Below, in pieces: positions 59,011 to 64,000 of a DNA stretch of 64,000 nucleotides. Source of the DNA: Blastocatellales bacterium (GTDB lineage: Bacteria > Acidobacteriota > Blastocatellia > RBC074); contig JBFWQI010000029.1 of the NCBI GenBank assembly GCA_050249535.1, forward strand, positions 7,039-71,038, written 5' to 3'. The notes beneath the pieces are model-generated. The model was not told where the DNA came from, ran no database searches, and saw only the letters and a list, made by a program, of their open reading frames with translations. The position numbers were made by a program, and so were the translations under genes. The stretch's first letter is position 1, and the number at the start of each line of letters is the position of its first letter.

Positions 59011-60360
59011 CTACTCGTCGATGATCAGCATGGGGACGGCCGAGCCGCCGCCGGCAGTCACGTTGAGGAGAGCCGATGACGAGAGTCTGACTCCGGCGCC
59101 TTCGACGCGCTGCCCGCGCCAGGTGTAGGGATCGAGGTCGAGATAGCGCGGCTCGAATGCGATTCCGTCGGGTGTCAGGACAGGGAATATCTCACTCGAA
59201 ATCTCGACCCGCTCCTGCACGATGAAAGCCGCGCCGAGGGCCTCGCCGATCGCGCGCTCCCAGTCTTCATCGCTGCACTCCCATCCGAGGGTGACCCCTC
59301 TTCCGCCGTAATCTCCGTTCGGTTTGAGGACAAGTTCGTCGCGATGCCGGAGGACGCAATCGATCAGGTCGACGCGCCGGCCGCGCCAGGTCGTGAATCC
59401 CTCGATCAGGCGCCGGGTCCAGGGGATGTGGCGGCGAACGGCATCAACCTCGTCGTTTGTGAAGAGATGCGAGAATTCAGGTTCTTCGAGCAGCGCGAAG
59501 AGGATCTTCTTCGAGAGCGCCTGAACGCGGAAGGAATTGACCACGCAGACGGCCCGATCCCGTGCCGCCGCCGCCAGCGGATGCGAGGGCCCGCAATGTT
59601 CGATGAATTCCGTCGTCACGATCCGCTTGTAGACGATATCGATCTCGAAGTCGCCGGCGCGCAGCCGGCCGTCGCTGTAGTCGAGATCGTTCGGATCAAC
59701 GATCCTGGTCGGGCATCCGCGGGATTCGAAGTACTGGCGGCAGATTTCGAATTCGCTGCGCGTTCGCACCTCCTTCCAGTCGACGATGGCGATATTCGGC
59801 CAGTATCCGGAAGCGCCGCCGGACCATTCCTCGTAGCTCTCGATCAGGGCGTCGAGGATAAGCGGGCGGACGGGGATCCGGCGCAGGGGATGGTTTCGCG
59901 AGAATTCGCGGACGACATCCATCTCGATGAAGATCTCGCTGAGAACGTCGCCGAAGAGCAGGCCTCCGGGGCTGTCGGCGTTGTATTCGACGAACCGGAA
60001 CTCGCCGTCCGACCCGATGAATGCGTCGAGCCGGCCGCTCGAGTCGGGCGCGGCGAAGCCAGGGTCGATCCGGACGATCTCTTCCTCGGCCGGCGTCAGA
60101 TCGAGTCGCTTGAGCAGGCCTGAGTCCGCGCAGATCGCCCGCGAGATCTTCGACAGCGCCGACAGGATGAGCGTCGATCCCGCGCGAATGGTCTCATAGC
60201 GGGATGCCGTAATCAGACAGGGTCTGAGCACATTGCAGATCGGACGATCGCCGAAAGTGAGCCGGTGTCGATCGATCCCGGCAGCGAGCGTCTCGACGGC
60301 CTGATCCGCCATCGGCCCTTTGAGCAGGCTGTGGAATTGTTCGATGAAGGTCTCTTGCAT
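59011..60360 (-). CDS. ATP-grasp superfamily protein (glutathionylspermidine-synthase-like / circularly permuted ATP-grasp)
   Basis: 449-aa ORF with a FVEYNADSPGG motif resembling GSP_synth/CP_ATPgrasp families. The subfamily is uncertain. Confidence 0.6.
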   Translation of the reverse strand: MQETFIEQFHSLLKGPMADQAVETLAAGIDRHRLTFGDRPICNVLRPCLITASRYETIRAGSTLILSALSKISRAICADSGLLKRLDLTPAEEEIVRIDPGFAAPDSSGRLDAFIGSDGEFRFVEYNADSPGGLLFGDVLSEIFIEMDVVREFSRNHPLRRIPVRPLILDALIESYEEWSGGASGYWPNIAIVDWKEVRTRSEFEICRQYFESRGCPTRIVDPNDLDYSDGRLRAGDFEIDIVYKRIVTTEFIEHCGPSHPLAAAARDRAVCVVNSFRVQALSKKILFALLEEPEFSHLFTNDEVDAVRRHIPWTRRLIEGFTTWRGRRVDLIDCVLRHRDELVLKPNGDYGGRGVTLGWECSDEDWERAIGEALGAAFIVQERVEISSEIFPVLTPDGIAFEPRYLDLDPYTWRGQRVEGAGVRLSSSALLNVTAGGGSAVPMLIIDE

Positions 60361-60492
60361 AGGGGTTAACTCTTGGTTCTGGCCTTTCAGTGCCGTATAT
60401 TACCATCTGTTTTACCGTCAGTCGCGCGAAACAGCGACATTCATCCCGGCTCAGCCGAGGATTACATTTCATACCGGGACAGGAACACAAAA

Positions 60493-61380
60493 GTGAGCAT
60501 ACGCAATGCCGTCATACCCGTTGCCGGACTCGGGACGAGGCTGCTTCCGGCCACCAAGTCGCAGCCCAAGGAGATGCTGCCGGTCGGCAAACGGCCGATC
60601 GTGCAGTACATCGTCGAAGAGCTCAATCTCTGCGGCATCGAACGGATCCTCTTCGTCACGGGCCGCGGAAAGAGTTCGATCGAGGACCACTTCGACGACG
60701 ATCCGGATCTGGTCCGCAACCTCCGCGAATCGGGCAAGGAGGACCTGCTCGAGGAGCTGGAATACGAGCGGATCGGGATCAACTTTCTCTACACCAGACA
60801 GCGGCGCCAGCGGGGACTCGGCGATGCCGTTCTGTGCGCCGAATCGTTCGCCGGGACCGAGCCGTTCGTCGTCGCGCTCGGAGATTCGATAATCGGACGT
60901 CACAAACCGTCCGACGTCGTCAGCCGGCTGATCGGCGCCTTCGAGCAGCATGACGCTGCCTGCGCGATCGCCGTCGAGGAGGTTCCCCGCGAACAGGTCT
61001 CGATGTACGGCATCGTCAATCCCGCTTCGGACGATGATGTATTTGTCATCTCTGATCTCGTCGAGAAGCCGAAGGTCGCTGAGGCGCCGAGCAACTGGGC
61101 GATCGCCGGTCGTTACGTCTTCGCCCCGGATCTCTTCGACGCCATCAGACAGACCGGATTCGACCATCGCGGAGAGATCCAGTTGACCGATGCCATCCGC
61201 CTGCTCGGTAAAGCGGGCCGTCGGATCGTCGGCGTTCGTCTCCCGCCCGATGAAAAACGCTACGACATCGGCAACTTCGAGAGCTACTTCGAAACTTTCG
61301 TCGAGTTCGCGCTGACCGACCCCGTCTACGGCGAGAAACTGCGCCAACACGTGAGGGAACTGCTGGGTGAGAATTCATAA
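60493..61380 (+). CDS. galU: GalU-type UTP--sugar-1-phosphate uridylyltransferase
   Basis: [29 protein letters not shown] is the canonical GalU N-terminus. I prefer GTG 60493 because the ORF-track start at 60373 would leave only 12 nt to the divergent gene. Confidence 0.85.
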
Positions 61381-62404
61381 GACAAAGGCCTTTGCGAGGG
61401 CAGGACTGATCGGCAATCCGTCAGACGGTTATAACGGCAGGACGATCAGCCTGATCGTCAGGAACTTCCATGCCGAAGTCGTCATCTACGAATGGCCCGA
61501 GCTGGAGATCATCCCGACGCGCCAGGATCACTGCCGGTTCGAGGATCTCGATCATTTTCTTTACGATACGCGGCTCAACGGTTATTACGGCGGATTGAGA
61601 CTGGTCAAGGCCTCCATCAAGCGGTTCGCCGAACACTGCCAGCAGAAGGGCATCGAACTTCCGCGCGAAAACTTTTCGATGCGTTATTCGTCGAACATAC
61701 CGCGCCAGGTCGGGCTGGCCGGTTCGAGCGCGATCGTGACGGCGACGATGCGGGCGCTCTGCTGGTTCTACAAGGTGACGATCCCGGAGGAGATACTTCC
61801 GGGTCTCATCCTCTCGGTCGAGAAGGAGGAGCTCGGCATCAGCGCCGGTCTGCAGGACAGGGTCTCGCAAGTCTATGAAGGACTGGTCTACATGGATTTC
61901 GACAGGGAGTTCATGGAGACTCACGGCCACGGGATCTACGAAAGGCTCGACCCGGCCCTCCTGCCGCCGGTCTACATCGCCTATCAGACCGAGCTGGCCG
62001 AACCTTCCGAGGTCTTTCACAACGACATCCGCAAACGATACGACAACGGAGAGCCGCTGGTGGTCGACGCGATGCGTGAGTTCGCGGAGCTTGCCCGACT
62101 GGCCCGGACCTGTCTGCTCGAGGGGAATCATGCCGAACTCGCTCGTCTGATGAACCGGAATTTCGATCTGCGCAGCAGCATCTACAATCTCAATCCCAAG
62201 CACGTCAGGATGATCGAGGTCGCCAGGGCCGAGGGCGCTTCGGCGAAGTTCGCCGGCTCGGGCGGCTCGATCATCGGGACCTATACCGACGAGGAGATGT
62301 TCGCTCGACTCAAGGCCTCCTTCGCCGCCGAGTCGTGCGATGTCATCAAACCCATTATCAATCCCGGGAACAGGCCCGGAAGCGCAGCCATTCTGCCGGC
62401 ATAA
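61367..62404 (+). CDS. GHMP kinase, glucuronokinase-like
   Basis: 345-aa ORF with a GTG start that overlaps galU by 14 nt. Motifs [56 protein letters not shown] and KFAGSGGS resemble plant GlcAK. This is recalled from memory and not searched. Confidence 0.75.
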
Positions 62405-62449
62405 TATTTTTGCAGGCAGGGTGGCTGCGCTCCCAGGAGCATCACAATA

Positions 62450-64000
<1,551 letters not shown>

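Follow-up and report, generated by a model that had tools for sequence, protein, structure and literature searches.

The overlapping gene pair at 60493-62404

The window analysed here is a stretch of 64,000 nt from a Blastocatellales bacterium of the Acidobacteriota (contig JBFWQI010000029.1, positions 7,039 to 71,038), and all coordinates below are those of the window. It carries two overlapping genes, both on the + strand. The first (60493..61380) has a GTG start and encodes a GalU-type UTP:sugar-1-phosphate uridylyltransferase of 295 aa, which was assigned to a kinase-associated subfamily by its Pfam domain, PDB matches, clade and residue signature. The second (61367..62404), also with a GTG start, encodes a GHMP kinase of 345 aa, which was placed by homology in the glucuronokinase family (GlcAK, EC 2.7.1.43, KEGG K16190). 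On balance, we believe that the pair is probably a translationally coupled bicistronic module by which free D-glucuronate (GlcA) would be salvaged to UDP-glucuronate.

The GalU-type reading frame is open from 60373 (60373..61380, + strand), and the conserved start is the GTG at 60493. The start was placed there because homologues and solved GalU structures align from this point and a Shine-Dalgarno-like AGGA (60481..60484, + strand) lies 8 nt 5' of the start codon. As read directly from the DNA, a second Shine-Dalgarno-like element, GAGGGA (61353..61358, + strand), lies within the end of the GalU-type gene, 8 nt 5' of the kinase start GTG at 61367, and the GalU-type stop codon TAA occupies 61378-61380, which gives an overlap of 14 nt (61367..61380, + strand). 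A preliminary description of this locus had reported a GalU-type frame that overlaps a 345-aa GHMP kinase by 14 nt; this arrangement was confirmed, and each kinase motif quoted there, including KFAGSGGS, was present. The overlapping kinase start is supported because orthologues align from residue 1 of the kinase, and orthologous GalU/kinase pairs likewise abut or overlap. The overlap suggests translational coupling of the two genes. The Pfam domains were NTP_transferase (PF00483, E 5e-31) in the first gene and GHMP_kinases_N and GHMP_kinases_C in the second. Because each gene has thousands of homologues, both were taken as real genes rather than chance reading frames. A promoter and terminator scan of 60300-62700 gave nothing exceeding the shuffled expectation. 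The C-terminus of the window kinase (62366-62404) is approximately 13 aa longer than that of the usual 332-aa homologues.

Against the kinase domain of Xenopus tropicalis GKUP, the kinase showed 47% identity across 344 residues (E 8e-102); it was 46% identical to plant glucuronokinase 1 of Ziziphus (P0289) and 44-49% identical to animal proteins named 'glucuronokinase with putative uridyl pyrophosphorylase'. When the window protein was aligned with plant, frog, fish, sea urchin and sea anemone proteins and three other bacterial kinases, 60 columns were invariant. These columns included every long motif of the family, namely GNPSD in the N-terminal part, GYxGGxRL, PRQxGLxGSSA (the GHMP phosphate-binding loop), AGLQDRVxQ, and KFxGSGG in the C-terminal part. 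The Lilium peptide VGFLGNPSDVYFGR (PMC2823444) was also matched by a segment of the window kinase. No NCBIfam equivalog covers the kinase; the best models were those of heptose-phosphate and mevalonate kinases, at E ~1e-11 and far under their cut-offs, and the nearest solved structures belong to the same families, with HddA the nearest (E 1e-11). Many metagenome proteins with 75-79% identity are automatically named 'glucuronokinase' by the JGI pipeline.

Studies have shown glucuronokinase activity for the Arabidopsis enzyme (Pieslinger et al., PMC2823444) and for zebrafish and Xenopus GKUP (Gangl et al., PMC3938481), and the Km of the zebrafish enzyme for GlcA was 31 uM. The plant and zebrafish enzymes are reportedly glucuronate-specific and use neither galacturonate nor glucose (PMC2823444, PMC3938481), and the plant galacturonate kinase reportedly shares almost no identity with glucuronokinase (PMC2823444). 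Judged from its sequence, membership of the window kinase in the plant/animal glucuronokinase family is well supported, and its substrate would be glucuronate. The preliminary description had assigned the kinase to the plant glucuronokinase subfamily rather than to the galacto-, mevalonate or homoserine kinases, and the identities of 46-47%, against E 1e-11 for other GHMP families, agree with it.

The GalU-type protein matched solved GalU and YngB structures in the PDB at E 5e-66. Its score against the equivalog TIGR01099 was 288 bits, below the cut-off of 326.8, which is strict and was passed by 5 of 14 control genomes. In an alignment with E. coli and acidobacterial GalUs, the catalytic and nucleotide-binding motifs were all kept: GxGTR with the catalytic Arg, the Lys of PKE, the uracil-binding Gln, the Mg-binding Asp, and the Glu and Lys of EKP (residue roles from PMC11796359 and bioRxiv 10.1101/2020.11.30.405621). 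Specific to the clade were two insertions of two residues each, RYDIGNF in place of RHDxGxK and, in some of its members, GLGDAV in place of GLGHAV; the window protein departs also from xGDD(I/V). In a maximum-likelihood tree, the kinase-linked and fused GalUs were split by a 100/99 branch from ten unlinked acidobacterial GalUs and E. coli GalU. The bit scores to the window GalU were 363-387 for kinase-linked GalUs and at most 244 for GalUs of kinase-less genomes, those of the same class included.

The copy number of GalU was evaluated in a phylum sample of 201 genomes (the window genome and 200 others). A GalU match was counted in 152 of them, including an unpublished one (G024), with a single match per genome at E 1e-40 or better. 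Within its own genome, no gene matched GalU better than the window gene, and the kinase-associated GalU was also the only close GalU in five genomes reached via loci of other lineages. Since the genome has no other close GalU, the GalU-type enzyme must be able to serve UDP-glucose synthesis. The most economical reading is that the kinase-associated GalU probably makes both UDP-glucose and UDP-glucuronate. Such a dual-specificity enzyme would be a functional analogue of the plant UDP-sugar pyrophosphorylase (USP) with a GalU scaffold rather than an additional copy with a specialised role. The protein L002 (L002:1423-2274, contig C7) was tried as a standard housekeeping GalU and was rejected, being 30% identical, with aberrant motifs, and also unlike the GKUP domain. 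It is a second, divergent GalU-like nucleotidyltransferase in its own genome and has GPYGNGTP where GalU has GLGHA.

Genomic linkage, fusions and the sugar-pocket residue

The kinase was present in 12 of the 201 phylum-sample genomes. Seven of these genes were close orthologues (54-59% identity), and in all seven loci a GalU-type gene (59-61% identity) lay directly upstream and abutted the kinase. Four distant homologues in the phylum (L023-L026, 35-41% identity), which lack both a neighbouring GalU and any additional Pfam domain, were not counted as kinase orthologues. In a wider scan with one genome per species, 80 kinase loci with 54-80% identity were collected from Acidobacteriota, Planctomycetota, Verrucomicrobiota, Kiritimatiellia, Chloroflexota, Desulfobacterota-like bacteria, Bacteroidota, Nitrospirales, Abditibacteriaceae and others. 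The GalU-type gene was directly upstream on the same strand in 49 loci, directly downstream in 10 and absent in 14, and the remaining 7 loci could not be assessed at contig ends. A GalU-type gene was thus adjacent in 59 of the 73 assessable loci. More distant bacterial kinases (P0245, P0253) stand alone.

In at least two lineages, a single polypeptide combines both proteins. In genome G159, GalU and kinase form a single frame of 637 aa with NTP_transferase and GHMP domains. The proteins P0121, P0122 and P0123 are natural GalU-kinase fusions, whose kinase domains were 50-53% identical to the window kinase; the GalU-type N-domain of P0121 was 40% identical to the window GalU-type protein. P0121 and P0123 sit in exopolysaccharide/exosortase loci, which hold a GT4 glycosyltransferase, a heparinase II/III-like protein, a UDP-GlcNAc 2-epimerase, an NDP-sugar dehydrogenase, the exosortase EpsH and an SDR epimerase/dehydratase.

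The residue after the Mg-binding Asp has been reported as a contact of the glucose moiety, namely Asp134 in YngB and D131 in Pseudomonas aeruginosa UGP (PaUGP), and the D131A variant of the latter is nearly inactive (bioRxiv 10.1101/2020.11.30.405621, PMC11796359). The window GalU-type enzyme has Ser132 at this position. Among the 59 kinase-adjacent GalUs, the residues were Ser (49), Thr (9) and Cys (1), whereas those in 29 GalUs of kinase-less acidobacterial genomes were Asp (27), Glu (1) and Val (1), so that an acidic residue was found in 28 of the 29. One planctomycete has no GalU next to its kinase, and the only GalU of its genome, sited elsewhere, was still of the Ser type. Taken with this unlinked enzyme, the acidic residue was lost in 60 of 60 kinase-associated GalUs, compared with 1 of 29 controls. 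Loss of the carboxylate would fit a pocket that admits the C6 carboxylate of glucuronate-1-phosphate. The preliminary description had suggested that a GalU-type enzyme takes the place of USP, and the adjacency, the fusions, the separate GalU clade and the changed sugar-contact residue all lend this comparative support.

Some details of individual loci were observed in addition. The fusions L038:8001-9842 and L039:8001-9902 end exosortase (EpsH) exopolysaccharide loci, and past one to three opposite-strand genes from them lie sulfate-activation genes (a CysN/CysC fusion and a CysD-like gene), which hints at a sulfated uronic-acid polysaccharide. In another genome of the same family as the window genome (G210:C21:175737-176752), the kinase orthologue matched as two overlapping fragments (residues 1-198 and 194-339 of the query), which suggests a frameshift or an assembly error.

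Proposed function and its alternatives

In the module that we propose, the kinase would first phosphorylate glucuronate at C1 with ATP, as its homology indicates. The GalU-type enzyme would then join glucuronate-1-phosphate and UTP to give UDP-glucuronate and pyrophosphate, a step to which the linkage, the fusions and the changed sugar-pocket residue point, and the same enzyme would also make UDP-glucose. The glucuronate may come from the breakdown of polysaccharides or glucuronides, from turnover of the cell's own polymers, or, in this organism, from myo-inositol oxygenase (MIOX). The UDP-glucuronate would supply uronic-acid-containing envelope or exopolysaccharides, beside a UDP-glucose dehydrogenase route that is apparently also encoded. 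As a tentative extension, which we regard as possible rather than probable, the Ser/Thr/Cys-type GalU would be an unrecognised bacterial dual-specificity UDP-sugar pyrophosphorylase, and its signature would mark acceptance of glucuronate-1-phosphate across many phyla. In the family of the window genome, together with inositol-1-phosphate synthase and MIOX, it would then complete a plant-like route that leads from glucose-6-phosphate to UDP-glucuronate without the dehydrogenase.

Several points weigh against the salvage module. An identity of 46-47% does not guarantee the same sugar, and no activity assay of the kinase or of its GalU partner in any bacterium was found in the literature searched. 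Because the GalU-type enzyme is the sole close GalU, adjacency alone could reflect shared regulation. In E. coli and Klebsiella GalU the signature position is occupied by Val, yet these enzymes accept glucose-1-phosphate (PMC11796359), so the loss of Asp is not diagnostic of a new substrate. The fused pyrophosphorylase domain of the eukaryotic proteins is of another type and almost inactive, its activity in GKUP being barely detectable in vitro (PMC3938481). In the window, no polysaccharide genes adjoin the pair.

The first alternative is a full plant-like myo-inositol oxidation route, in which MIOX expressly feeds the kinase and the GalU-type enzyme, and UDP-glucuronate is made from glucose-6-phosphate independently of UDP-glucose dehydrogenase. 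We consider this route unlikely. The genome does hold an inositol-1-phosphate synthase and a single MIOX gene (36837..37661, - strand; PF05153, E 1.6e-112) besides the kinase and the GalU-type gene; within the same family, MIOX was found in 12 of 17 kinase genomes and in 4 of 8 kinase-less ones, and in a few relatives (G201, G213, L053) it lies 8.5-27 kb from the kinase. However, among the 200 other genomes of the phylum sample, the kinase was present in 11 and MIOX in 11, with zero overlap. In the 25 genomes of the family, both genes were present in 12, the kinase only in 5, MIOX only in 4 and neither in 4; the kinase-only genomes include ones of 100% and 98% completeness, and the MIOX-only genomes include ones of 96-99% completeness. 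Of the 80 kinase loci, one had MIOX at a distance of 10 kb or less, and in the window it lies 24 kb from the pair on the opposite strand, in a separate operon with a GH4 glycosidase. The genome also encodes a catabolic glucuronate isomerase and two probable UDP-glucose dehydrogenases.

The link between the kinase and MIOX is weak, and MIOX may be a possible, facultative source of glucuronate here, not a part of the conserved module. The preliminary description had joined MIOX, kinase and GalU into one whole route, which these results do not support; the co-occurrence comparison across genomes that it had proposed revealed no consistent joint presence or shared locus. We believe that the salvage route would run alongside the dehydrogenase route and would not replace it. 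After MIOX, the - strand carries a GH4 NAD-dependent glycosidase (35144-36523) and a neutral/alkaline ceramidase-like protein (33731-35140), the latter overlapping by a few bases. This set (33731-37661) looks like an operon degrading an inositol-containing glycoside or glycolipid, and one might speculate that plant glycosyl-inositol-phosphoceramides are its target.

The second alternative, which appears improbable, keeps the same module and assigns it to another sugar, for example galacturonate, mannuronate, an N-acetylated uronate or a hexose, whose 1-phosphate the GalU variant would activate. Few substitutions are needed to shift the specificity of GHMP sugar kinases, no bacterial member was found assayed, and the UDP-GlcNAc 2-epimerase and NDP-sugar dehydrogenase genes of the fusion loci are makers of other uronic acids. 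Set against this are the glucuronate specificity reported for the plant and zebrafish enzymes, the 60 positions, with all long motifs, that are invariant between the plant/zebrafish and bacterial proteins, and the distance of the plant galacturonate kinase from the family. That the GalU-type gene is a plain housekeeping UDP-glucose pyrophosphorylase whose adjacency is mere co-regulation, glucuronate-1-phosphate having another enzyme or fate, seems very improbable. In its favour, the gene is the only close GalU of the genome and keeps its catalytic motifs, some kinase-adjacent GalUs, at 354 bits, pass the strict GalU cut-off, and the kinase lacks a GalU neighbour in 14 of the 73 assessable loci. 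Against it stand the fusions in at least two lineages, the perfect covariation of the kinase with the missing acidic residue, and the lack of any other known enzyme that uses glucuronate-1-phosphate (PMC3938481).

Known systems, significance and neighbouring genes

The salvage module resembles the pairing of plant GlcAK (Arabidopsis GlcAK1, At3g01640) with USP, a pairing that serves as salvage arm in the myo-inositol oxygenation pathway (PMC2823444). The kinases belong to the same family with all motifs in common, and the two-step logic is the same, from sugar to sugar-1-phosphate to UDP-sugar. In contrast, plant USP has approximately 600 aa and belongs to the PF01704 family, whereas the pyrophosphorylase here is of the GalU fold with approximately 295 aa; the bacterial genes are operonic and overlapping, and MIOX is inconsistently present. 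A PF01704 search of the genome gave no match, but the control genomes were equally without one, which deprives this negative of weight.

Zebrafish and Xenopus GKUP (PMC3938481) share with the pair the kinase domain, the same order of nucleotidyltransferase then kinase, and the same presumed product. Their N-terminal domain is a different type of nucleotidyltransferase, while the bacterial fusions use a GalU-type domain. The eukaryotic UP domain was considered as an orthologue of the window GalU and was rejected, since BLASTP gave no significant similarity to Xenopus GKUP (best E 0.17). With the bacterial GalUs (E. coli GalU, B. subtilis GtaB/YngB and P. aeruginosa UGP), the GalU-type enzyme has in common the fold and the motifs GxGTRxLPxTK, the Mg-binding Asp and EKP; it differs from them in its score below the equivalog cut-off, its separate clade, the change of Asp to Ser, the two insertions and RYDIGNF. 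The same design, a sugar kinase joined to a nucleotidyltransferase that activates its product, is found in Bacteroides FKP (fucokinase/GDP-fucose pyrophosphorylase, PMC11982464), and HddA/HddC and AmgK/MurU also pair a kinase with a nucleotidyltransferase; these systems differ from the pair in kinase subfamily, nucleotide and sugar.

The preliminary description had also stated that this is not an established bacterial pathway. This fits the literature searched, in which no bacterial assay or GalU partner is described, but it has to be qualified, because Pieslinger et al. had already noted glucuronokinase genes in 'a few bacteria' (PMC2823444) and the JGI pipeline uses the name. The glucuronokinase family and the logic of two-step salvage were thus already known, and the partner here belongs to a distinct GalU subfamily.

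Uronic-acid polysaccharides, capsules and many envelope modifications are made with UDP-glucuronate as donor, for which UDP-glucose dehydrogenase is the only textbook source in bacteria. Current one-pot syntheses of UDP-glucuronate pair the Arabidopsis kinase with a separate pyrophosphorylase. If the module acts as proposed, kinase/pyrophosphorylase salvage in many soil and aquatic phyla would alter models of uronic-acid recycling and exopolysaccharide supply, and it would provide an active pyrophosphorylase partner, which the zebrafish study was unable to show. It would also offer natural catalysts, encoded by two genes or as a single polypeptide, for making UDP-glucuronate in one pot, and the single-residue signature of the GalU is a directly testable specificity hypothesis. 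We regard the module as being of moderate interest because it is widespread and directly assayable.

The genes around the pair were examined as possible further parts of the module. The ATP-grasp, enolase and amidohydrolase neighbours were rejected as such, since their synteny is confined to close relatives of the Blastocatellia type, some of which lack it. The next gene after the kinase is the amidohydrolase, whose start at 62450 lies 45 nt downstream. Divergently upstream of the GalU-type gene, the - strand encodes a 449-aa protein (59011-60360), whose match to circularly permuted ATP-grasp type 2 falls short of the threshold (30 bits, cut-off 32). This protein keeps its position in eight related Blastocatellia-type loci from metagenome-assembled genomes (54-63% identity), and not beyond them.

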